Shown here piece after piece: positions 13,889-53,744 of a stretch of DNA of 64,000 bases. The stretch comes from a virus. The notes under the pieces are model-generated. The model saw only the letters and a list, made by a program, of their open reading frames with translations, searched no databases and was not told where the DNA came from. The translations under genes were made by a program, and so were the position numbers. Each line of letters starts with the position of its first letter. Positions within the stretch are counted from its first letter, which is position 1. The stretch covers positions 1 to 64,000 of the IMG/VR virus record IMGVR_UViG_3300037755_001279; one strand, given 5' to 3'.

Positions 13889-13962
13889 GCCGGCGTAGCC
13901 CAACTGGTAGCGGTAGCGGGTTCAAACCCCGTGAAGTGCAGGTTCGAATCCTGCCGTCGGCA
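13889..13962 (+). tRNA. tRNA-Leu(CAA), short variable arm, no encoded CCA
   Basis: Acceptor GCCGGCG/CGTCGGC, anticodon arm GCGGG-TTCAAAC-CCCGT, T arm GCAGG-TTCGAAT-CCTGC. Confidence 0.9.
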
Positions 13963-14011
13963 CCGCGTCGGTGTCACCAGCTCGTCGGACCCCTGTGCGA
14001 CAATCGTCGGT

Positions 14012-26132: not shown

Positions 26133-26143
26133 CTCTTCCTCGG

Positions 26144-26216
26144 TCAGGGGGCGTCGATTCGAACGACGGACCTCACGGGCTGTATTCCCGGCGCTCTTCC
26201 ACTGAGCTACCCCCCG
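26144..26216 (-). tRNA. Non-canonical tRNA-Val(TAC)-like gene
   Basis: CGGGGGG/CCCCCTG acceptor, GCTC-AGTGGAA-GAGC D arm, CGTCG-TTCGAAT-CGACG T arm; anticodon loop AATACAG lacks U33. Confidence 0.75.
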
Positions 26217-40768: not shown

Positions 40769-41346
40769 TCGAAGCAACCGAAGCGATCAAACCGGCGTGC
40801 CTCAATTGCAAGACGCCGATCGAAGGCGGCGTGGTGTGCCGTGACCACCTGGCGTGGTTCGTCGAGCGGGCGAGCTTCAGCGTGCGCATGGACCCACAGG
40901 ACCCGAACGTGGTCCTCACGGAGTACCGGCGCGTGAACGCGCCGTTGCGCGGGTACCACGTCACCGGCGACGCGGCGCTGGTGGCGCTCACCCATTTCTG
41001 CATCCACTACCTGCACGGCATCGGCGTCTTGCCCGACGATTTTGCGTTTGGGCTCGTCGAGAGCCTTGGACCGCAACCGGAGACCGACGCGTTGCCGTGG
41101 GCTGCATCCGTCGATCTGCCGACGACCGACCCGTCGGTGTCGCCGACTTGTGAGCATGACAAGTATCCCGGCAAGTACCTCGTTGACGGGTCTGCCGCGG
41201 CCGCACCGGACGACAAGCTGCCACCCAAGCCAAAGCGCGGTCGCCCCAAAGATTCGCCCGTGCGTCTCGTGTCATCATCCATGGGCGACACCGTTGCGGT
41301 GATGCCCGACGATGATGACGACGACCAGACCAAGGAACCGCCGTGA
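40759..41346 (+). CDS. Hypothetical protein with AT-hook-like KRGRPK
   Basis: CLNC...CRDH, PKRGRPK. Confidence 0.55.
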   Translation: MAVIEATEAIKPACLNCKTPIEGGVVCRDHLAWFVERASFSVRMDPQDPNVVLTEYRRVNAPLRGYHVTGDAALVALTHFCIHYLHGIGVLPDDFAFGLVESLGPQPETDALPWAASVDLPTTDPSVSPTCEHDKYPGKYLVDGSAAAAPDDKLPPKPKRGRPKDSPVRLVSSSMGDTVAVMPDDDDDDQTKEPP

Positions 41347-41657
41347 CCAAACCAAAAAAGGAGACCCTCAAGCGCGCCCGGATCACCGGCAAGCAGATCG
41401 CAGGCCTACGCGCGCGGATGTACCTCAACGTGCAGGAATTTGCGGGCGCGCTCGGTGTGCACGCCAGCAGCGTTTACCGCTGGGAAGCGACGGCGCGGCC
41501 TGCGTTGCGGCCATCGATGCAAGCGATCATTGAGCGGCTGCTGAAGCTCGACGACGATCACCTGAAGCTCGCCGGTGAGGCGATCAAGCTCGCGCTCGCG
41601 GCCGAGCAAACGGATCAGCTGCAGGTGATGCAGCGGACGCTGGCTGCGGTGGCGTGA
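41343..41657 (+). CDS. Cro/XRE-family HTH regulator
   Basis: IAGLRARMYLNVQEFAGALGVHASSVYRWE. Confidence 0.85.
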   Translation: MTKPKKETLKRARITGKQIAGLRARMYLNVQEFAGALGVHASSVYRWEATARPALRPSMQAIIERLLKLDDDHLKLAGEAIKLALAAEQTDQLQVMQRTLAAVA

Positions 41658-41807: not shown

Positions 41808-42089
41808 CTAATCCTCGCCGGGGATCTCGCCGTCCTTGTGCGACAAGATGTACTGCTGCAGGAACGTCTCGAAGGCTCGCTTGAATTCGCCCGTGCCGAC
41901 ACGGAAGCCTTCGCCCCAGCCGGCCTCGAACGGGTCGTGTGCGCCGCCGTGCAGCCGCTGATCGATCAGCAGCCGCAGGTATTGGCTGACCGAGACCTCT
42001 TCGCCGGTGGCCTGCTTGAGCGCCTCACGGTCGTGGTCGACCTTGTGGCCGGTTTCCTCGTCTACCTGGACTGAAAAAATGCGGGGCAC
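41808..42089 (-). CDS. Ribbon-helix-helix-like regulator
   Basis: RIFSVQVDEET...SVSQYLRLLIDQRL. Confidence 0.6.
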   Translation of the reverse strand: MPRIFSVQVDEETGHKVDHDREALKQATGEEVSVSQYLRLLIDQRLHGGAHDPFEAGWGEGFRVGTGEFKRAFETFLQQYILSHKDGEIPGED

Positions 42090-42169
42090 GTGGAGCTTTC
42101 GACAGAGCCTGGGCGGAGCTTTGCGCACCCCAACGTATCGCCGCGCGCCGCCGGCGCCAAGGGGATCCG

Positions 42170-42495
42170 GCACGCGATCTCCGACGGTGGACCGTCGAAG
42201 ATCCGAATTCGGGGGATTCGAACATGCGAAAGGGTCCGAATCGACGTCGAATCCGGGACCTATGAGCGCCGCGCTGATTCGGAAAGCATCCGAAAAATGG
42301 CCTGTATTATCCGATAGTTATACGATAAATCCACGGGTTTCATTCGAGAATCCACCGGTTTTACCGAATGAAATCCGATACTTGGACCACTAATCCACGG
42401 GTTACCATCACCCGTGAAACCCTCGGATCTGGCACTGGAGAACCAACTAAGAATCGAATAAATTCGCATAGTTACGGCTTTTAGCGAAGTACCGA
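42170..42495. repeat. AT-richer non-coding junction with short repeats (possible origin or genome-end junction)
   Basis: AATCCAC[G/C]GGTT at 42328, 42349, 42392; several ATCCGA. Confidence 0.6.
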
Positions 42496-42496
42496 C

Positions 42497-42562
42497 TTGT
42501 GCTTTGGCTTGTCAGGCCTCATGATGGTTCTTGCCCGGCACTTTCCACCCCGGGCAGGAAGG
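42497..42562 (+). promoter_or_regulatory. Promoter TTGTGC-17-CATGAT, leader hairpin, RBS
   Basis: Hairpin GCCCGG-11nt-CCGGGC conserved at 46229 and 52009. Confidence 0.7.
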
Positions 42563-42572
42563 CACGAACCCA

Positions 42573-44423
42573 ATGGACACCGGAGCCGACGACGACCTTT
42601 TCGACATGCGCGGATCAGCCCCCTCGGATCCCCGCTTTCGCGCACTGACGCCCCCGGGGGGCGTCCCGTCGCCCTGGCTCTCGCCGCCGTCGGCGGCGCA
42701 GCTGCCCGGCGAGATCACCCTGCCCGCGGCACGTGCCGAGCGCGTCGCCCTGGGGCTATTCATCGCCGCGTTCCTGCGCGCCATGTGGTTCACCTGGGGT
42801 GCGCTCGCCGAGCGCGCTCGCATGGCGCCCGTGGCAGCGCCCGTGACGGCGCCCGCGCCCGCCGCCTTGCCGCCGGTGGTGGCGCCCGTGGTGGCGCCCG
42901 TCGTCGACTCGGCGCCCGTGCGCACCGACCTGTACATCCGCGCGCTGCCGGACGGCACGCTAGCACTCGTCGCTCCGTACATCCGCGGCGCCGACGGCTA
43001 CACGGCGCGCCCTGCACTCAAGGCCGCCACCGGAGCCGAGTTTCTGCGTGGTACACCGACGCTGCGTGCTGCCGGCCTCACCGAGGCGTGGGTGGTGCCC
43101 GCGGGTGGCCTTGCCGCTGCTCGTGCATGGCTCATGCAGTGGTTTGGCTACAGCGGCGGCTCGGTGCAGGGCACCACGGCCAGCCTGACGGACGCGCCCG
43201 CGGCACCCGCCGTGGCGCCCGTGCCCACGGCTAGCGAGCGCCAGGCAATCCCCGCCGCTACGATCACAGCGGCCGTGGTGTCAGCCGATGCCACCTCCGC
43301 CGCCATCATCGAGCGCGCGCGCAGCCGCCGCGCCGCGACTCCGCCGCCCGTCGCGGCGGGCAACGCAGCGCTTGCCGCGCTCGATGCCGCGCTCGGCGGT
43401 AACACCATGCTGACGGAAACCCGCGCCGATGTCGGCGAGGTCAACGGCGCCACCCTACGTGCCGGTGAGCTAGTCGCCGGTGCCCGCACCGACGGTCAAG
43501 GTGTGCTCGTCGGCTGGACCGGCCGTAAGGAGCGCACGCGGTCGCAGATCATCGCGGCGCTTGCCGCCGCGGGTGCCCCGTCGGATTGGGCGCCGAAGAG
43601 CAAGAGCGCCCATGCCCACGCTGGTAACGCCGTCATGCGGCTCAGCCGTGAGGGCCTCATCCCGCGCATGGCGCGCGACGTCAACGCCGACGATCGCCGC
43701 CGCGGTGTCGCCGCCCGTTGGATCGTCGGCCGCGCCAACTTCACCGGTGATGTCGGCGATGCCATGGGGCGGATCGCCCTGACGGCCGAGCTGGTCAACA
43801 GTGACCTCCGGCTTGACGGTGACCCGGCGCTTTGCGCCGAAGTCCGCGAGGAGTACAACCGCCGTGCGGACGCGGACGTGTACGGCGCCGCGGACGTGAC
43901 GGCGTGGTTGTCCGGCGTGCTGCGCGAGCATCTCGGCGCCGTGCGGCTGGCACAAGCGTGGTACGTGCGGAATCAGCACGCCACGGTGGCCGAGCGCCTC
44001 TGTCAGGTCATCGCGGACGGCGACAAGTCGATCGCGCTCACCGGGTGGGGGTGTGACTGGCTTCTGCCCGCGCTGCCGGTGGCGACCAGCAAGCAACTCC
44101 GTACGGGCCTGGCCCGCGGGTTCATCACCGAGGCGACCGACGTGCTCGACGAGCTGGAAGCGGCGCAAAAGGTCGCCCGCGATGCCGGCCGCACGGGCAT
44201 CGGCACCCGCGCCGCGGCGACCTTGCTCGGCAAGTTGCGCACGGTCAGCGAGCGCGCCGCGCAGTACATGACGATCCTCGGGGCGGAAGCGCTCGGCGAC
44301 ATCAGGGTTCAGATCCGGGCGGCGCTCGACGTTGTCGAGCCGCTCTGTGATGACACTTCGCAGCGCGGCGCTCTGCTGGAATTGGACGACGCGCCGCGCG
44401 ATTCCGGCGCGCGCCGCGACTAG
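42573..44423 (+). CDS. First early-region protein (C-terminal half reminiscent of DUF6744-type phage proteins)
   Basis: AGGAAGG RBS; long ORF; family guess weak. Confidence 0.7.
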   Translation: MDTGADDDLFDMRGSAPSDPRFRALTPPGGVPSPWLSPPSAAQLPGEITLPAARAERVALGLFIAAFLRAMWFTWGALAERARMAPVAAPVTAPAPAALPPVVAPVVAPVVDSAPVRTDLYIRALPDGTLALVAPYIRGADGYTARPALKAATGAEFLRGTPTLRAAGLTEAWVVPAGGLAAARAWLMQWFGYSGGSVQGTTASLTDAPAAPAVAPVPTASERQAIPAATITAAVVSADATSAAIIERARSRRAATPPPVAAGNAALAALDAALGGNTMLTETRADVGEVNGATLRAGELVAGARTDGQGVLVGWTGRKERTRSQIIAALAAAGAPSDWAPKSKSAHAHAGNAVMRLSREGLIPRMARDVNADDRRRGVAARWIVGRANFTGDVGDAMGRIALTAELVNSDLRLDGDPALCAEVREEYNRRADADVYGAADVTAWLSGVLREHLGAVRLAQAWYVRNQHATVAERLCQVIADGDKSIALTGWGCDWLLPALPVATSKQLRTGLARGFITEATDVLDELEAAQKVARDAGRTGIGTRAAATLLGKLRTVSERAAQYMTILGAEALGDIRVQIRAALDVVEPLCDDTSQRGALLELDDAPRDSGARRD

Positions 44424-47400
44424 CATCCCGCGGGGGGCGCCGGGTGGGTTGGGCCGTGACGCGGGCGATTCTGCCGCGCGTGTACGGTTCGACGGCCCGG
44501 AGCTGCCAAATACGGAGCCGTCGCCCGGCGCCCCCCGCACCTTCCTTTTTCTTCCTGCCACCTCGGAGTCAAGCCCCATGGCTATCGTCACCGCGTTTCA
44601 CTTCACCGCGCAAACCGGCGCGATCGACTACGCCGAACCCAAGGCGCCGTCCAATTTCTACCGGTACACCTTGCCGGCCGCGTGCCTTGGGCGCGTCAAA
44701 CTGGCCATCGATGCCGCCGCCGTCGGGTCGGGTGGCCTGGAGTACCCCGCCGACTTCCTCGTGTGGCTTGCCGCGAACGATGCGCCGCGCGCGGCGCTCA
44801 CGTGCCGCCACTGCGCGAAGCCGTGCCCTCCACAGCACGTGACGTGCGACGGTAGCGAGTGCCAGGAAGCCGAGTACCACGCCAACGCTGAGCGCGCTGC
44901 AATGCGGCGCCGCACGCGGCGCTAGGAGCCAAGCCATGCCGATCCGTCAATACATCACTGACATCGAGGCCCTGTGGGACAACGGCCGCGATCTCCACCA
45001 AGTCGTCGACGACTACATCGACCAACTGCAGGACGAGGAGCGCGCAGAGATCTTGGCGCTGTACGGTGCACGGGACCTGAGCGAGCCGACGCCAGAGGCG
45101 TTCGACAAGCGCGGACCGTTCGACAAGACGCCGCCGCCGCTGCAGCAGGGGTGGGACGCGATGCAGCGCTGGTGGGAACGTGTGCAACGGCAGCTCGCCT
45201 TCAACGCGCTCTATCAAGCGGCGTGCGCCGTCTTGGACGGCACCATGACCCCCGAGGAAGCAGGTTTGCCGTGACCACCGCACCCACCCCCGAAGCGTCC
45301 GAAGAGCTTTACATCCCCGCCGCCCGCGACGCGGTGATCGCCTACTTCGGGCGCCCCGCGCACGGCGGCGCTGGGCTGCGCACCCACTGCAACACCTGCA
45401 TCGCCGCCGGCCACGCGTTGCACGGCTACGACGGCCGCGCGGAGCCCGACAAGGTGCACGGCGATCTGCTGACAGCGCGGTCCGACGGTCGCGACGGCGA
45501 CATGTTGCCGGACACCGAGGCGTGCGACGTCTGCGACGTGCTGCTCTCGACGATCTCGGCACAGTGCCAGGCTGAGCACGATGCACAACAAGCGCGCTGG
45601 GCACGCATCGCACGACCGACCGTGCTGATCGAGTACGGCATCCCGGCGTTCATCCGCTGCCGGGTGTACTGAGGAGTCTATCCATGTCACGCAAGCAACA
45701 CACTGAGAGCCGGAGCCGGCCCTACTTCACCCTCTGTGGCCGCGAGATGCCGCAGGATCAAGATCCGTGGTCGCCGGACGCGGAAAGCTGTGAGGCGTGC
45801 GCGCGCGTTGTGCGCCTTGCCGATGCCCGACGCAATCAGCGTGCGCCGCGTACCTTCGGCGGCGATCGTTAGCCCACCCCATAACCAACCACCGCTAAGG
45901 AGCAACACGACCATGGAACCGTCGACCACTACCGCCGCCACTACCACCGCCGCCACCGCCGCTTCGGACGACGGAACGCCGCTCGTGCAAGCCGCGCTGC
46001 GCGCCTTGCCGTTGCTGGTCCAGCTTGGTGATTACATTGGCAACGGCCCCGTCGACTCCAGCAACCCGCAGTCCCTCGGTGAGCGCTGTGACGTTGTCGA
46101 GGCGTTGCGCGCGGCGCTCGGCGCTCTCGGCGTGTCCGAGTCGGACATGGCGCCCACGAAGGGGCGCCGCGCGTAGGCCAATTTTGCCAGAGTGAATTTC
46201 GCAAACGCGAGCGACGTCTGATACAACAGTCGGGCATTTCAAACCCCCGGCAGGAAGGCAGGGCCCCGTGGCCTACCAGTACACCACGACTGAGACCGAG
46301 GCCGAGCACGCCGAGCGCATCGGCGTCGATGAGACCAGCGAAGAGACCCGCTGGTGCGACACTTGCAGCGTGTGGGAGGCGGCCGAGCTGGTGTGCGAAA
46401 AGGCGGTGGCCGCCGCGCTTGCTGCCGAGGAAGCGGCGATCCTGGCCAACCGCCCGCCCCCGGCGCGCATCGTGGCGCGGATGCGGCGGCAGACGCTCAT
46501 CTGTTCGTGCGGCCACCGTACGTGCCGCATGATCAACAGGTACGGCCTGACCGTCCCGACGTTCCGCGGTGACATCGAGCCGATCCCGTCGCAGTACGCG
46601 CGGGACCGGCGCGCGCTGGAGATCAAGGCCGGGGGTGGGTTGTGATCGAGATACCCTCGGCGGAAGCCAGCCGTCGCCTGGCGATCATAATGCAGCGCGC
46701 CCCGCAACTGTACGACGCGGTCCTGGTGGACGCGCACGGCGCCATCGCCGCCGTGTGCTGCGTGTGGTGGGTGGGCGACGTCATCGAGGATGCCGGCGAG
46801 AGCTGGACCGGCTATGTGCTGATGCCTGGGGGTGGGTTGTGACGCGAACCCGCAACCCCGAGCACATTGCCGGCCGCAAGGTGCCCGGTTGGGGCGCCCG
46901 GCGCATCGCTCAGATTCCGCCCTGCGCTGCCAGCATGGGCTGTCTCTGTGCAGGCCACGCGCGCGGCAATGCTGCGACGGCGCCGTGTGACACCAGCGAG
47001 ATCGCACCGACCGCGTCAACGCGGGCAACCCGCCCGCCCACCATGACCGACTTCGAGGCCTGGATGCGCGACATCTATGCCAAGTCGCGCAAGATCGACC
47101 CTGACGAAGAACGTGACTGGAACGCGATGGCGCTCGGGTTCATGGTCGCGCGCGGCGTCGACTACCGCGTAGCTGTCGATTGGGAGCTATGCTCGGCGTT
47201 CACCTGCGGCGATCGGCCGCGCGCCGAAGCGGCGACGGCGATGTCAGAGCGCGTGTGGCTCGCGCATGATTGGGCCGACCGAGTTGGGTACCGTGCCGCA
47301 TACCGTACGGCACTCGTCGCAGCCGCGGACGCCACCGAACCACCGGCCGGTATCGACGTCGCTCTGTGGGTGCGCTCACTCGATGATGCAGCGTGGGAGG

Positions 47401-48468
47401 CGGCGCGGGTAGCGGTACCGGTTGAGCTGCCCAAGAAACGCAACGCACGGTCAGCGGCTGCGCGCGCGCATCTTGACGCCGTCGCGGCTGCCGGCCATAC
47501 GGCGCGACTTGCAGCCAGCTCGCACGCGTTCAACCAACGCTTGATCGCCGGCTGGAATGTCGCCGGTACGCCGCTACCGGAGTGCGCTGCGGCTGACCTA
47601 TGCGATCCGCACCGTCGCGGATACCCGACGACGACGCCATGCGCGGACCTCCGCATGTTCGACCCCAACGCCCCGAAAGGCGCCTGACTCCATGCTGTTC
47701 ATCGTCAACTGCGAGACCTTCAACGCCGACGGCCCGACCCGGGAAGAGACGCTCTTTGTCGTTGCATCCGACCGGATGGCCGCGATCAACGAAGCGCGGC
47801 GCGCCGTCAAGCGATGGCCCGAGAGTGCGGCCCTCAAGGCCGGCATCTTGATCACCGGTCCGCGTCCGGTGTTCCTGTCCGTCGGGCACTGCGCCCGCGA
47901 GCTGCTGGCCGCGGACCTGGCTTACCTGATCGGTTACATGGTTGCCGATGGCGATGACGCCATGGAGCTGGATTACGCTTCTGGCTACATCGCGTGCGCG
48001 CTTTACGGCGGCGCGGACTGCGACGTCGATTGGATGGCGACCGACGAGATCATCAAGCCGCGTGTCGCGGCAATGATGCGCGCGGCGGCAGCGGCGCGGC
48101 GCGCGGACTTGGTTCCCGAGGGGTTGGTGTCATGAGCGGTTTGCATCGAGCGCTCACTGCCGCAATCCTGCAGTGCAACGCGGCGATCGACGCGTACCCG
48201 GACCTGACGCGGGCCGATGTTCGACACCCGGGTCAAACCGAATCCACCGTCGTCACCGTGACGCAGGTACACGGCGAGCTTCAGTGGCACGTCGAGTGCC
48301 GCGTCAGGTTGCTCAAATCGCCGCGTCGCACGGCGGCGCGCGGTCGCGTGGCGGCGCGCGGTGTGATGAGTGCGTGTAAAGACACGCTGACCGCCACCAT
48401 CGCGTCGTTCTGCGACCCCACGCAGATCGGCTACCTCGTCGACGTTTTGAAAGAAATCTAGGAACACC

Positions 48469-48615
48469 ATGACCGTCTTCCTCAACAACACCCACCACTC
48501 CAGCGGCAACAACAAGGGCCAGGTCCGCCGCGCCTGGCGTCGCATCGCGCGCAAGCGTGACCGTGCCGCGGCGCGCCGCGAGCTGCGGCTCGCGCTCGCT
48601 GGGGAGGGGTTCTAG
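48469..48615 (+). CDS. 48-aa Arg-rich peptide (below cutoff)
   Basis: AGGA RBS; ...GQVRRAWRRIARKRDRAAARRELR... Confidence 0.6.
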   Translation: MTVFLNNTHHSSGNNKGQVRRAWRRIARKRDRAAARRELRLALAGEGF

Positions 48616-51600
48616 GTCATGCCCCGCGCCTGCATCATGTTCGCCCACGCCGATGGAACCGAGGGCAACCACGCCACCATCGAGGGTGACGAAGCGCGCA
48701 TCCGCGTGGCGCTTCATGGCTGTCTCGGCGTCAACAATGCGGCCCGAGCGTGGGCTACCGACGCACGCACCGGTGAGCTGATCGCCGGTGTCTACTACGA
48801 CGGCCGCGCGCTGACGTCACTGCCGACTACGCAATACGCCGTGTGGATCGGCGCCTTCAAGGGTGAGATGCGCGGCGGAGTGTGGGACGCGCACGGGGGC
48901 GGGCGCCTTGTCCGACCGCCGCTCGCGCGCATCATCGAGCGCGACGCGTCGCATGTCTACCGCGCCGTGCGCGGCGGCGGCAACCGCATGGTGCTGGTCT
49001 ACATCAACGGGCGCTGCATCGGCCACGCTGATCCGATCGACCTGGGGTTCACGGGCACCGATGCGATGATCGCCGCGGGGGCTGCGTCATGAGTGGGAGC
49101 AAGATCACCACGCGCCACCCGTCCACGCCCGAGATCACCGCGTTCGCCGTGGGCGCTAACGGCACCCGTAACCGCGGCTTTGATCTCGATGGCGTGCGCG
49201 TGCTGGTGTCTGGCGACGACGACGCGCAAATCGCCGCGGTGGCCTTCAACCTCGCCAACGCAGGTGCTGCACTGGAACAGGCGCGCGCGCGGCATGTCGA
49301 GCTGCAGGCAGAGATCGAACGCGTCGAGTCACCCACCGCACGGTGGGCACGGCTGCACGCGCAGCACGCGCAGCTTTCAGCTGCACCACCCAAGCGCCCC
49401 GCGCGACTCTTGGGCCCCGGTGTGGTCCGTTTCGATCCGGCGATGGGCAAGCCGTGGCTGCTCAACAAGCGTGAGCCGGGGTGGTCATCCTGGGGCGTGG
49501 TTTGCGACGATTGGGATGATCTATTTCGCCGCTTCAACGTTCGGGTTACCGGACACGGCACCGACGAGCACGGTGCATGGTGGGAGGTCACGCCGATCAT
49601 CGAGGAAGCTACGCCGTGAAGGGCCCCAAGATCACACCCCGTGCGGGGCGGCGCTACAATTTCGCCGATGTCACCTGGCCTGCCGATCAGACTGCGTGCT
49701 TTGCACGTTGTGAGATCGCTGCGTCGCGTGCCACCGACGGCACGCCGGTGCTCGACGTCATCATGATCTTCAACCCCGCGGTCCGCGTGCGCGTGCCGTA
49801 CGAACAGCTTGCCGCGATGCACGTGAGCGATGCGCTGGTAGAACGCGCGCTCGCTGCGTTCGTGGCAGTGCCGCCGTGCAACGGCGACGCAGCACCGCTG
49901 GAAGCGGCGATGCGCCGTGCGCTCGAAGCAGTGCTGAAGGGTGGGCGGCCGTGACGTCCGCAGGCGGGATCAGAATGCAGTATCACCCAGCTACAGGAGA
50001 TCGACCATGACCGCTACCCCCAGGACCGCCGCCGACCATGGCGCCGACGACGCGACCACCGCCTACAACGAGTGGAGCGACGACGTCAGCCCGATCGAGT
50101 CCGTCGCCGCGATGCGCGCCGGTCGCGAGGAGTTGCCGGACGAGGCGCTGATCAACGCGATGGGCGCGAACTGGATCATCCAGCAGGCGACCGGCGACGA
50201 GGCCGCCGAGCAGACGGACGAGAATTGGGAGATGATCGGCCTGCCGTGGTGCGCGGCGTACAACGCGGCGTATCTCGCCCGCCTCCAGGAACTGGCGTCC
50301 GCCGCCGCGCAGGGCGAGTAGGCCCGAGCGGTGAGCATCGACCCCGAGCACCGCATCCGCTCCCTCGCTGGCGAGGACTACCACGGCGACCACCCAACCT
50401 CGCCGGCCCGCGCCCGCATCGAGTGGCACGCCAACGACGAGGACATCGCCGAGGCGGTCGCGCGGGTAGGCGGCATCGACTACGCGGCCACGCTGTACGC
50501 CGAGGAGCTGGCGGAGATCCGGCGGTACGAGGCGAGAGAGGAAGGCTGAGATGGGCAAGGACGGGGATAGGACTGCTCACTGGATGCGCCGGCCGTGCGT
50601 CTGCGGCAGACCGTTTGGCGCCCACCGCGCGGCGCCGCCCCACTCTCACGGCGACGACTGCCCGGGATTCCACGCCAAGAGCGAAGCCCCACCCGCCACC
50701 AAGGAAGAGTAGGAGGAGACGATGACTGAACGAGACGACAAGGCAAGGTTCATCGGGCGCCTGCGCCACTTCGCGGCCACCAACGGCGCCGACACCCCCG
50801 ACGGCTACGGTCGCATCGGGTACCGCCCGGGGCGCGGATTGACGGTCCTGGCGGTCGGCATCGCGCAGTACCTCGACGACCCGGCGATCCCCGGTCCGTC
50901 CCTCGGGCTCAACTGGCTGCGCGATCTTCCGCTGTACCTCACCGAGGCGTTCCGCGCCTTCCGCGAGTCGCCGCGGTGGGACGACTTGCGGCGGGTCTAC
51001 AGGGAGCACGCCGACCACGAGATCCCGAGCCTCGTCAACATCCACGAGGGCGGCCTCCATCGCTCCATGGTAGCGCATGACATCGTGCGGCTCGTGCCGA
51101 TCCTTGCCGATGCGGAGTGGCTGGCGGCTCGGCTCGCCGAGCACGTCAACGCACAGTGGGGCGTTGTCACGCAGGCGTGGCAAGACTTCCTGCGCGTCAT
51201 CTACCGCGAGGTCATGCCGCGCATCAAGGCCGAGACCCACTGCGGCGAGTTCGGAGCGACGACCCTGCTGTCGTTCGCCTGCGCTGGCCGCGTGATGTTC
51301 ACGTTCAACCGCGGCGATGACTCGCTCACGTACGTTGCCGACGATTCGGACATGTACGGCGCGCGTTCCGGCCCGAACGCGACCGCCACACCGTACGAGC
51401 GGTGCGTCGCGATGATCCGCGATGTGGTCGACGGCTGGGGGATGGAGAGGTTCGCGCGGTCCGACAGCGTGGGGATCGGATGACCGCCCCGCTGACCGAC
51501 GACGAGCGCGACGGCGCGGCGGCGCAAGCCGAGGCGGACGCCGACGGCTACGACCGCGGCCTCGAATACAACACGGTCATGAGGTACTACCGCTACTTCA

Positions 51601-51957
51601 TGTTGCCGGAGAAACGGAACCGCTTCGGGTATGAGCTGCGCTGCGAGGTCGTGTCGTGCACGGACTACGACAAGATCAAGCCGGGGCACGGCCCGTGACC
51701 CGCGGACACAACACGCGCGCCTCGACGATCACGCACGGCCGACAGTATGCCGTCAACGTAGTCGACACCGTAGTCACCTTCGAGTGCGCACGCGCGCAAC
51801 ACAACTACAAGATCGATTTCGCGAAAAAGCCGCTGCACAGGCGGTTGAGCACAACGGCGTGCAAGATGATGGCGCGTTGGTGGAGTCGTGAACGCGGCGG
51901 CTGTATCGGCGAGTGTCCGAAGTGCCGCCGTGCCGAGCTGAAGTTGAAGCCGCCCCC

Positions 51958-52040
51958 TTGACTCCGCCCTAACCAAGCACTATTCTCATCTGCGAAACTG
52001 GAAACCCCGCCGGGCACTTCTCACCCCCGGCATCGAGGAG
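51958..52040 (+). promoter_or_regulatory. Promoter TTGACT-17-TATTCT, operator, leader hairpin, RBS
   Basis: Near-consensus sigma70 boxes; TTCTC-ATCT-GCGAA overlaps -10. Confidence 0.8.
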
Positions 52041-53744
52041 CGAGACCATGATACTCACGAAGTTGTTCAAGTGCGGCCACACGTACTACCGCGACCCGGC
52101 CGCGAACCGGTACTACGTCACCGACGCCTCGACGGCTGCCAGCGGCGCCGTCCAGATCGACACCACGCGACCGATCATCATCGGCGACTGCGGCGGCATC
52201 AGCCTGCCGCTCGCCGACGGCGGCGCCACGCCGATCTCGGGCATCGAGGCGGCAGCGGCGGTGCTCAACCTCGGGATGACCGTCCGACTCGGCGAGCTGG
52301 GCGACCACGTGATCCTCACGCAGGCGGATTGAGCCATGTGGACCCTCGACGACGTCAAGGCGCTCGTCGCCACCGGTGAATTCCACCACGCGACGGCACG
52401 CACGATCGGTGAGCCGCGGTTGTTCATCTACCGTCGCAATGGGGCGGGCTTTCGCGGCTACGAGCTGGTGGCGTCTATCCCCGACACCGACGAGAACCGC
52501 GCGTACTTCGCATCCATCAAGCACGGCGTCTCTGTGGGCGCCTACGGAGCAGGCTGATGAGTGCCGACCTGATGACCCCGAGCGTCCACCTCAACGGCAC
52601 GAGCGGCGAACAGTTGTTCGAGCAAGTGTGCGGTGTCCTCGACGTGCTGCGCGCTTTGCGCAAGGCGATGGATGACGCCTCGCCCAACGCCCGCGACTAC
52701 TACATCCAGGGTGACGACGCCTTCAAGATCGCGGTGCTCCAACACGACGCCCGCGGCTTCAAGGTCACCGTCCTCATCGAGGAGTACCAGGCCCTCGCCG
52801 AGGGCATCGCTGACCAGAGGGGTGTGTAAAAGCCATGTCCGAATTCCTCAACAACGACATCGACACCGACTCGCTCACTGAGTCAGAGGTTCGCCGGCTG
52901 TGGCGCGAGCATCTGATCGACAGCGGCACCCGGGAATCCGCCTATCAATTCATCCGGCAGCGCAGCGACGTGACCACGCATCGCGCGGATCGCGTCCAAG
53001 CGGCGATGCGCTGTGTTGAGTTGCTGCGCCAACGCCCGGAGCATCAAGACGCCGTCAAGGCGCCGCCGGTCAAACCAGGCCGAGCCGAAGCAACCAGCCT
53101 CACAACCGACGGCATGATCATGCTGCGCGCGCTCGTGCACGTCGAGCTGAACCGGCTGCGCGCGCAGTTGGCGGGCGTCGAGGAGATATGCGGAACCTAC
53201 TACCCGCACGCGCCGCAGCTTGCGACATCGCGCAAACGCGTCGAGGAAGCTGAAGCGCTATACGGCAGCCTCGAAGATCTGCACAAGCTCTTCGATCAAC
53301 GGTCGGACGCCATCCGCGCCGAGAACGAGGCGCGGGAAGAGGTGCGGCTGCTGCGCGCCGCGCTGCAGGCGGAGCGCGCCACGGGGCTGGCGAGCAAGGA
53401 CAAGTTGTGACCAAACTCCTACGCCAAGACGCCGCGGTCATCATCTACCAGTGGCAGCGTCAGATCGGCGATCACTGGTCGTGCATTGCACTGCCGCCCA
53501 CCGGGAACGGGCACAACAGACCGTTGCACCCCAAGGCGTGGACTGAACACACAGCCAGCGGTGAAGCCTGGCAGCGTCACGGCATCCACGGCTTTCTGGA
53601 CAAAGACAAGGCGTTCGCTGCGATGCCGCTCGTCACGGCGTTCATTCGCACCGAAGCCGAGTATCCGCAGTATCGGCTGGCGCAGCTGCAGCTCACCCAG
53701 GTGACCACGGCGCTGGTGACAGCGACGGTGAAAGACCTCACGCC

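Follow-up and report, generated by a model that had tools for sequence, protein, structure and literature searches.

The window analysed here, a stretch of 64,000 nucleotides (nt) forming the first half of the 126,509-nt virus record IMGVR_UViG_3300037755_001279 (labelled G000), contains three copies of a small hairpin with a conserved loop, each located immediately upstream of a ribosome binding site. The element is real and under selection and, judging from its features, it is most probably an RNA read on the + strand. Its best reading is that of a cis-acting RNA, not described before, that belongs to the 5′ leaders of three rightward operons and would probably set the translation or the lifetime of the three operon messages. 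The hairpins mark the probable heads of early transcription units, the term "early" being suggested by gene content and host-type promoters. The three copies, with their scores in a covariance-model search, are the following:

42533..42555, + strand: leader hairpin 1, GCCCGG-CACTTTCCACC-CCGGGC; 53.5 bits; orthologous copies in the relatives G001 and G002 (contig 8)
46229..46251, + strand: leader hairpin 2, GTCGGG-CATTTCAAACC-CCCGGC; one G-U pair; 51.2 bits
52009..52031, + strand: leader hairpin 3, GCCGGG-CACTTCTCACC-CCCGGC; 48.0 bits

The three strings quoted in the initial annotation of this DNA are found without any deviation on the + strand, at 42533-42555, 46229-46251 and 52009-52031, and the 6-bp stem with an 11-nt loop (23 nt) and the loop consensus CAYTTYNNACC that it described are present at each site. 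The stems of sites 1 and 3 are perfect over 6 bp, while site 2 has a T at stem position 2. The swap and the wobble were also correctly reported: the pair at stem position 4 is C:G in site 1 but G:C at the other two sites, and position 2 of site 2 forms a G-U pair. Sequence, copy number and position can thus be read directly from the genome. A regular expression applied to the whole 126,509-nt genome matches the three hairpins only, and the covariance-model search of the full genome that had been proposed as a check (model R1) places the three sites at 48.0-53.5 bits, with the next best match at 10.6 bits. In the window, a 19-nt degenerate core gives 3 matches against 0 in 100 dinucleotide shuffles; a 20-nt pattern with up to 3 mismatches gives one further, unconvincing match (0.93 expected by chance). 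At all three sites, RNAfold returns the hairpin as the minimum-free-energy structure.

The claim that the element is an undescribed cis-RNA is supported by the absence of an Rfam match, by covariation in six copies from three genomes, by the strand-specific orientation and by a G-U pair that exists on the + strand only. With Rfam 15 at the gathering threshold, the whole window yields a tRNA only, and a permissive scan of 42300-52300 yields only a sub-threshold match to Yfr1 on the other strand (48316-48387). A generic scan of the three genomes for other leaders combining a hairpin and a Shine-Dalgarno (SD) sequence returned many GC hairpins inside genes; only the six copies stand out, by their pyrimidine-rich loop and the low GC content of the DNA upstream. 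No description of the hairpin motif or of Tessaracoccus phages was found in the literature searched, a limited library.

Only two relatives were found in all the collections searched: G001, a 123.9-kb IMG/VR contig with terminal repeats, which is syntenic with G000 (conserved genes at about 65-75% nucleotide identity), and contig 8 of G002, a 78.6-kb contig from the GTDB genome scan that is binned in a metagenome-assembled genome (MAG) titled Tessaracoccus sp. Both carry an ortholog of site 1. In G001 it reads GCCCGG / CATTTCTCACC / CCGGGC, with the SD AGGAAGG and an ATG 17 nt after the stem; in G002 it reads CCCGG / CATTCTCACC / CCGGG, with the SD GGAGAG and an ATG likewise 17 nt after the stem. 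When the site-1 intergenic regions of the three genomes are aligned, 16 of the 23 hairpin columns are invariant versus 64 of the 218 others (Fisher p = 2e-4). The same alignment shows further kept blocks, namely ATAGTTAYNNCTTTTA, a -35 TTGnnn, 17 nt, a -10 CATGAT or TACAAA, and 7 nt leading to the hairpin. In a blastn comparison of G000 with G001, the only similarity in the neighbourhood of site 1 is a 60-nt island (85% identity) around the hairpin and the start codon.

A second hairpin of G001 reads CGCCGG / CCCTAACCAACC / CCGGCG (17.5 bits), followed by AGGAAGG and by an ATG 18 nt after the stem. It is preceded by TTGACA-17-TATTCT, very like the site-3 promoter of G000 and the sole match in G001 to the promoter expression described below, and it heads a gene of 88 amino acids (aa), after which a homolog of the G000 site-2 gene stands second in the operon. 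The same shape and position recur here with other stem and loop letters; promoter, leader and gene modules appear to have been shuffled between the genomes. Near-identical TTGACx-17-TATTCTCAT sequences, with one match to the expression each in G000 (window 51958-51989) and G001, are found before different genes. Promoter and leader seem to travel as a cassette of their own, whatever genes they drive.

Taken over the six copies, loops of 10-12 nt are carried on stems of 5-6 bp, and CAYUUYNNACC is present in five of the six, with seven loop positions invariant in these five. The 66 loop nucleotides of all six copies include no G, in a genome that is one-third G. Since the flanks of the five copies have diverged beyond alignment, the invariance of the loop argues that something reads it.

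For the structure test, the six copies were aligned to the model (alignment A6). Every one of the 35 stem cells is a standard pair, and compensatory changes altering both sides are found in three of the six pairs (4 cells); covariation, like the conservation across three genomes, is a direct observation. The covariation score is 0.422 compared with 0.112 ± 0.079 in shuffles, none of 500 reaching 0.422, and structures slid by 1-3 columns score at most 0.089, with 27-66% of their cells paired. A metagenome scan with the 3′ 19 nt of the motif served as a control. It gave at least 119 matches, and among those listed all were judged by context to be chance and unrelated; a single one pairs all four outer stem positions left unconstrained by the pattern, the same positions that pair in all four virus copies matching the pattern. 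Within the 75-nt leaders of the six copies, RNAalifold finds one hairpin of 6-8 bp and no second stem.

The loop is conserved and asymmetric in its letters, whereas those of the stem differ between copies without losing complementarity. This combination of a conserved loop with covarying arms is the pattern of a protein-read RNA hairpin and the reverse of that of a dimeric DNA operator. All copies are oriented with transcription, on the coding strand, and the wobble of site 2 is a G-U pair on the + strand and a C-A mismatch on the other. Hence an RNA is favoured by the covariation of the arms, by the strand on which the G-U pair forms, by the shared orientation and by a spacing tied to the start codon.

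The initial annotation had placed the hairpin between promoter and ribosome binding site. The ribosome-site side of this statement stands at every copy in the window, AGGAAGG or GAGGAG being found just 3′ of each stem:

42556..42562, + strand: Shine-Dalgarno AGGAAGG of site 1, 1 nt after the stem
46252..46258, + strand: Shine-Dalgarno AGGAAGG of site 2, 1 nt after the stem
52035..52040, + strand: Shine-Dalgarno GAGGAG of site 3, about 3-4 nt after the stem

The start codons are ATG at 42573 (site 1), GTG at 46268 (site 2) and ATG at 52048 (site 3), at 17, 16 and 16 nt from the stem, respectively. In the six copies, this distance is 17, 16, 16, 17, 18 and 17 nt, and the SD begins 1-6 nt after the stem. 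The hairpin therefore spans roughly -17 to -40 relative to the start codon, which lies within the contact region of the 30S subunit, the usual place of classical translational operators.

The promoter side of the statement is supported at sites 1 and 3 and is ambiguous at site 2. The promoter expression, of the authors' own making, was TTGAC-N17-19-TA[TC][TA][CA]T for G000 and G001, with N16-19 for G002, contig 8 of which gave no match to it. The upstream features are the following:

51958..51986, + strand: sigma-70-type promoter of site 3, TTGACT-17-TATTCT; sole match to the expression in G000
42497..42525, + strand: promoter-like TTGTGC-17-CATGAT of site 1; layout conserved in three genomes
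46217..46227, + strand: candidate -10 elements of site 2 (overlapping, found by eye), TCTGAT 6 nt or TG-a-TACAAC 1 nt before the stem
42468..42483, + strand: AT-rich block ATAGTTAYNNCTTTTA, some 13 nt 5′ of the -35 of site 1; identical in 11 of 18 columns across G000, G001 and G002

At site 3, 22 nt separate the -10 from the hairpin, which would thus lie about 15 nt inside the predicted transcript. Hairpin 1 starts 7 nt after the -10, so that its predicted transcript begins at or next to the first stem base, and the same layout of -35, 17 nt, -10 and 7 nt is found in G001 (TTGCAG-17-TACAAA) and G002 (TTGCAT-17-CATGAT). The gap between -10 and stem is thus 7 nt at the site-1 type, 22 nt at site 3 and 26 nt at the second hairpin of G001, which would place the hairpin at about +1 of the transcript in the site-1 type versus about +15 to +19 in the site-3 type. 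As the spacing to the start codon is constant while the distance to the promoter varies, the hairpin is tied to the ribosome site and not to the promoter. The AT-rich block may represent an UP-like element, the binding site of a regulator or a piece of the divergent promoter. A short, heptamer-like sequence, TTCGCA / TGCGAA(A), is repeated in the AT-richer stretches preceding the three hairpins (42459-42467, 46198-46208 and 51991-51997) and also upstream of the G001 copy of site 1; it is too short to judge against chance.

Among the explanations weighed, the one tentatively preferred, at a level of confidence that stays below an even chance, is a translational operator read through its loop, with protection of the 5′ end in addition at the site-1 type. 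In this mechanism, hairpin, SD and start codon would form one unit at the first cistron of each operon, and a trans-acting factor, probably a virus-encoded RNA-binding protein, would recognise the stem-borne loop. With the stem directly next to the SD, this factor would control in concert whether the 30S subunit reaches the leading cistron of each of the three operons. In the site-1 type, the hairpin would be the 5′-terminal structure of the predicted mRNA and may in addition protect it from 5′-end-dependent decay. Of the two roles offered in the initial annotation, translational operator and antitermination signal, it is the former that fits the anatomy, with a constant 16-18 nt to the start codon, an SD abutting a covarying structured element and a conserved loop, as found in members of the translational operator class. 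The action as RNA, the transcription starts, the trans-acting factor and the direction of control are inferences.

Protein-read translational operators located beside the ribosome site include those of T4 RegA, phage Mu Com and E. coli thrS. The resemblance lies in a small hairpin upstream of or overlapping the SD, a specific loop, an effect on 30S access and, for the phages, on timing; in contrast to these systems, no sequence or protein homology was found here, and one motif is common to three operon leaders. The target of T4 RegB and S1, described as an 11-nt single-stranded motif of GGA followed by an A-rich stretch at the SD of early mRNAs in the part of PMC1702504 drawn upon, is likewise a short conserved mark attached to the SD of a set of early phage messages, which it singles out for a shared post-transcriptional fate. 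According to the same part of that source, the RegB site is single-stranded and extends 3′ from the SD, whereas the present motif forms a hairpin and precedes the SD. No gene of G000 was recognised as RegB-like.

Several observations weigh against a loop-read operator, or against the evidence for an RNA in general. There are only six copies, from three related genomes, and this relatedness inflates the shuffle tests; A6 was fitted to the model structure, despite which the stems are plain in the raw sequence. A DNA hairpin or a cruciform would also keep stem covariation. The transcription starts and the folding of the RNA in vivo are predictions; a look-up of sequencing runs containing the stretch listed no RNA run and one DNA run, possibly of the source sample. 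The extended -10-like TG-a-TACAAC of site 2 would start transcription inside the stem, in which case hairpin 2 would be present only in RNA reading through from upstream. Hairpin energies are ordinary for DNA of 66% GC (z = -2.05, +0.47 and -0.73), two of the three window hairpins being no more stable than shuffled sequence, which means that the signal is one of conservation and not of thermodynamics. The second loop of G001 lacks CAYUUY, and a single loop-reading factor would not cover all six copies. Finally, no candidate RNA-binding regulator was recognised among the approximately 180 open reading frames (ORFs) scanned with Pfam, nor with PHROGs, and Pfam gives no family in the genes proximal to the leaders.

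RNA partners of the loop were also sought. In the host 16S rRNA, the best perfect matches to the loop complement lie at different positions for each loop, with none for the G001 loop, and pairing of loop and 16S rRNA was dropped because the match positions differ. Elsewhere in the genome, a search for an antisense partner found only the hairpins' own opposite strand at 0 mismatches; matches with 1 mismatch are scattered and unremarkable.

A passive leader module, acting without a dedicated factor, is an unlikely alternative. The hairpin would be an mRNA stabiliser and/or a leader fold that presents a G-free loop beside the SD, onto which the 30S subunit (e.g., via ribosomal protein S1) would load efficiently in GC-rich RNA. 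A stem near the 5′ end of the transcript is predicted for the site-1 type, where the start falls at the first stem base in three genomes (stem 7 nt after the -10); the six loops lack G and are hence kept unpaired, and the second hairpin of G001 retains shape and position but not the loop letters. At site 3 and at the second hairpin of G001, by contrast, the stem follows the -10 by 22-26 nt and is not terminal but some 15-19 nt into the leader, and a passive module leaves the seven invariant loop positions of five copies with unalignable flanks unexplained. Removing the 5′ arm in silico lowers the unpaired probability of the SD in four of six leaders, as such a module would predict, and has the opposite effect in the other two, so that the effect on SD accessibility is inconsistent. 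For the same reason, the accessibility falling in four of the six leaders and rising in two without the 5′ arm, the idea of the hairpin as an "insulator" of the SD was dropped.

Also unlikely is that the element acts as DNA, as an operator GCCSGG-N11-CCSGGC bound by a virus repressor that would block RNA polymerase at or just after the start in the three operons. The repeat covers the predicted +1 at the site-1 type and abuts a -10-like element at site 2, and candidate binders are at hand in an HTH_31 protein (41343-41654) and a small divergent protein (41811-42173), whose genes are kept beside site 1 in three genomes. A temperate life style is suggested by the gene for a tyrosine integrase at about 75.3-76.3 kb of the genome (75346-76341). 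The phiC31 repressor binds conserved inverted repeats (CIRs) near the early promoters of a Streptomyces phage, and repeated inverted repeats near early promoters of an actinophage are what is found here too; CIRs are DNA operators with conserved arms, whereas in the present hairpin the arms covary and the loop is conserved. The inverted repeats of ESAS motifs at gene starts in Cluster K phages were likewise interpreted as DNA sites in the part of PMC3203893 drawn upon. Against a DNA operator, the arms vary and stay complementary, and conservation and asymmetry reside in the 11-nt "spacer", contrary to the pattern of a dimer operator; the G-T of site 2 breaks a DNA palindrome and not an RNA stem; the distance to the start codon is fixed whereas that to the -10 is not (7 versus 22-26 nt); every copy is oriented with transcription; and the divergent protein has no Pfam DNA-binding family.

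The HTH_31 protein is encoded on the + strand and the divergent protein, of 121 aa, on the - strand. The latter is ribbon-helix-helix-like by eye only, and Pfam gives nothing for it even at E = 10. Together with the integrase, this region looks like a lysogeny or lysis switch region.

Antitermination of the nut/put type, the other role offered in the initial annotation, is a poor fit and improbable. The nascent hairpin would modify RNA polymerase, directly or via an N-like protein, for the read-through of terminators. Antitermination signals of lambdoid phages sit in operon leaders of this kind, and the present hairpins, conserved with covariation, indeed stand in the leaders of three long co-directional gene runs, as do lambda nut and HK022 put in early operon leaders. 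Lambda boxB has a 5-bp stem with a short loop of 5 nt, and HK022 put has two stems over about 70 nt. Unlike boxB, all six copies have loops of 10-12 nt on 5-6-bp stems, and unlike put, the 75-nt leaders form one short hairpin without a second stem. Antitermination also gives no role to the fixed spacing of 16-18 nt to the start codon or to the abutting SD, and no Rfam match supports it. Between 40 and 57 kb, 6 terminator-like sites were found, two of them on the + strand, compared with 9.3 ± 2.7 in shuffles, in a scan that leaves Rho-dependent terminators outside.

Very improbable, lastly, is a pairing of the CU-rich loop with the purine-rich SD, in a pseudoknot, in an alternative fold or in trans, that would mask the ribosome site, a behaviour with a precedent in the C-rich loops of the actinobacterial small RNA B11/6C, which pair with G tracts near ribosome sites in the part of PMC12395582 drawn upon. 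Loop positions 3-8 can pair with the SD at site 1 (CUUUCC/GGAAGG) and site 3 (CUUCUC/GAGGAG), with one G-U each, and 4-5 pairs are possible at three further copies, but pyrimidine and purine hexamers pair in about 18% of cases by chance when G-U is allowed (the authors' estimate) and the second loop of G001 offers at most 3 complementary bases. In four of the six copies, stem and SD are joined by 1 nt, which could not bridge a helix of 6 bp, and the alternative fold is far less stable than the GC stem.

The closest described system to the hairpin is that of the SAS and ESAS motifs of Cluster K mycobacteriophages, which are orientation-specific, located at a fixed distance of a few bases from start codons and of unexplained function in the part of Pope et al. 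2011 (PMC3203893) drawn upon; their function was still awaiting experimental verification in 2025, in the part of PMC12699233 that bears on it. From these accounts, as far as they were drawn upon, the two systems have in common that they are short, orientation-specific and absent from the host, lie in the non-structural half of the genome before unrelated genes, include or abut the SD and contain an inverted repeat. The positioning is also of the same type, the hairpin being found 16-18 nt from the start codon, on the coding strand only and in a rightward block rich in ORFs of no recognised family (ORFans). In contrast, the genome has three hairpins compared with 11-19 copies of SAS/ESAS, the hairpin has 6 bp and a conserved 11-nt loop whereas ESAS has 17-bp arms and a variable spacer, and the changes in its arms keep pairing whereas the ESAS authors, in the same part of PMC3203893, report that theirs do not and favour DNA binding. 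The 13-nt SAS consensus as given there, allowing up to 2 mismatches, has 0 matches in the window, with 1.02 expected by chance. With the consensus absent and copy number and repeat geometry different, the hairpin is, on these sequence comparisons, not a member of SAS/ESAS. Taken as a whole, the interpretation given in the initial annotation is partly supported.

The genes that directly follow the hairpins are the following:

42573..44423, + strand: first gene after hairpin 1, 616 aa, unassigned in Pfam and PHROGs; both relatives have an ortholog behind their site-1 hairpin
46268..46645, + strand: first gene after hairpin 2, 125 aa, GTG start, no family
52048..52332, + strand: first gene after hairpin 3, 94 aa, no family

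The 616-aa protein is 31-33% identical to its orthologs in G001 and G002. Its residues from about 257 to 606 are DUF6744-like in the ESM Atlas (features 0.81, structure TM score 0.75 by hit), which is a lead only, and a motif around DDTSQRGxLLELD near its C-terminus is largely kept in the three orthologs, with 6 of 13 positions invariant. For the 125-aa protein, the ESM Atlas gave nothing. The 94-aa gene heads a tightly packed run of small genes extending to about 57.2 kb. The settings of the three sites differ: site 1 lies in a divergent intergenic region of 400 nt, site 2 in a 91-nt gap behind a co-directional gene, and site 3 in a gap of roughly 90-160 nt, depending on the real upstream ORF. 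At the end of the gene upstream of site 2, a GGCGCC-N8-GGCGCC hairpin (window 46139-46158) precedes DNA richer in AT. It may be a terminator that lacks a U tract, in which case site 2 would form a transcription unit of its own.

G000 is an undescribed large bacterial virus, and its host is probably an actinobacterium. The record has 126.5 kb, a GC content of 65.5% and a completeness rated at 98%. The GC content and the binning of G002 in a Tessaracoccus MAG suggest an actinobacterial host, binning being weak evidence. Neither megablast nor blastn of the region against 50,697 phage records gave a match, nor did tblastn of a conserved 156-aa protein against phage records. IMG/VR scans with three proteins encoded downstream of the hairpins confirmed no relative, those with two conserved proteins returned G001 again and nothing else, and among 401 genomes of the family of G002 the only real match was in G002 itself.

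Most ORFs of G000 fall into no Pfam or PHROG family. ORFans make up almost all of the rightward block with the three hairpins (42.5 to about 78 kb), while the leftward arm (about 84-120 kb) encodes a family-A DNA polymerase fused to a uracil-DNA glycosylase domain, a ThyX-like protein, a SNF2 helicase, methyltransferases and a phrog_1735 protein. The polymerase has 920 aa (genome 99300-102062, - strand), and its domain of the uracil-DNA-glycosylase superfamily (residues 37-184) precedes the family-A domain. The phrog_1735 protein (722 aa, genome 118095-120263, - strand, 770 bits) has relatives of 43-46% identity in hundreds of unrelated phages of Proteobacteria, Bacillus and cyanobacteria and is by far the most widely shared gene product seen in this otherwise orphan genome; by its size it is reminiscent of rIIA, which we take to be a candidate only. 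A PF00940 search for a single-subunit RNA polymerase gave no match, but its control gave none either and the result is uninformative; the reading of the promoters as those of a virus RNA polymerase was dropped. Sigma-70 region 2 was not found in G000 in a search whose control worked. Two tRNA genes are predicted by ARAGORN, Leu(CAA) at window 13889-13964 (+ strand) and Val(TAC) at 26142-26216 (- strand); at the gathering threshold, Rfam reports only the former.

The reach of the finding is narrow, with three related genomes in all the collections searched. Motifs attached to start codons have been catalogued in actinobacteriophages since 2011, and no mechanism is given for them in the parts of the reports cited above. 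The hairpin is a compact and testable case, with three copies, clear covariation of the stem and a conserved loop, and hairpin and SD together may be usable as an expression part in GC-rich hosts. In its most specific and more doubtful form, the translational operator would be the RNA target of a previously unknown virus-encoded regulator that reads the G-free CAYUUYNNACC and switches together the first genes of operons transcribed by the host polymerase. If true, this would be a timing circuit similar to RegA and Com in a virus lineage with almost no recognisable genes, and it would provide the first RNA-level mechanism for the long-unexplained "start-associated" motifs of actinophages.

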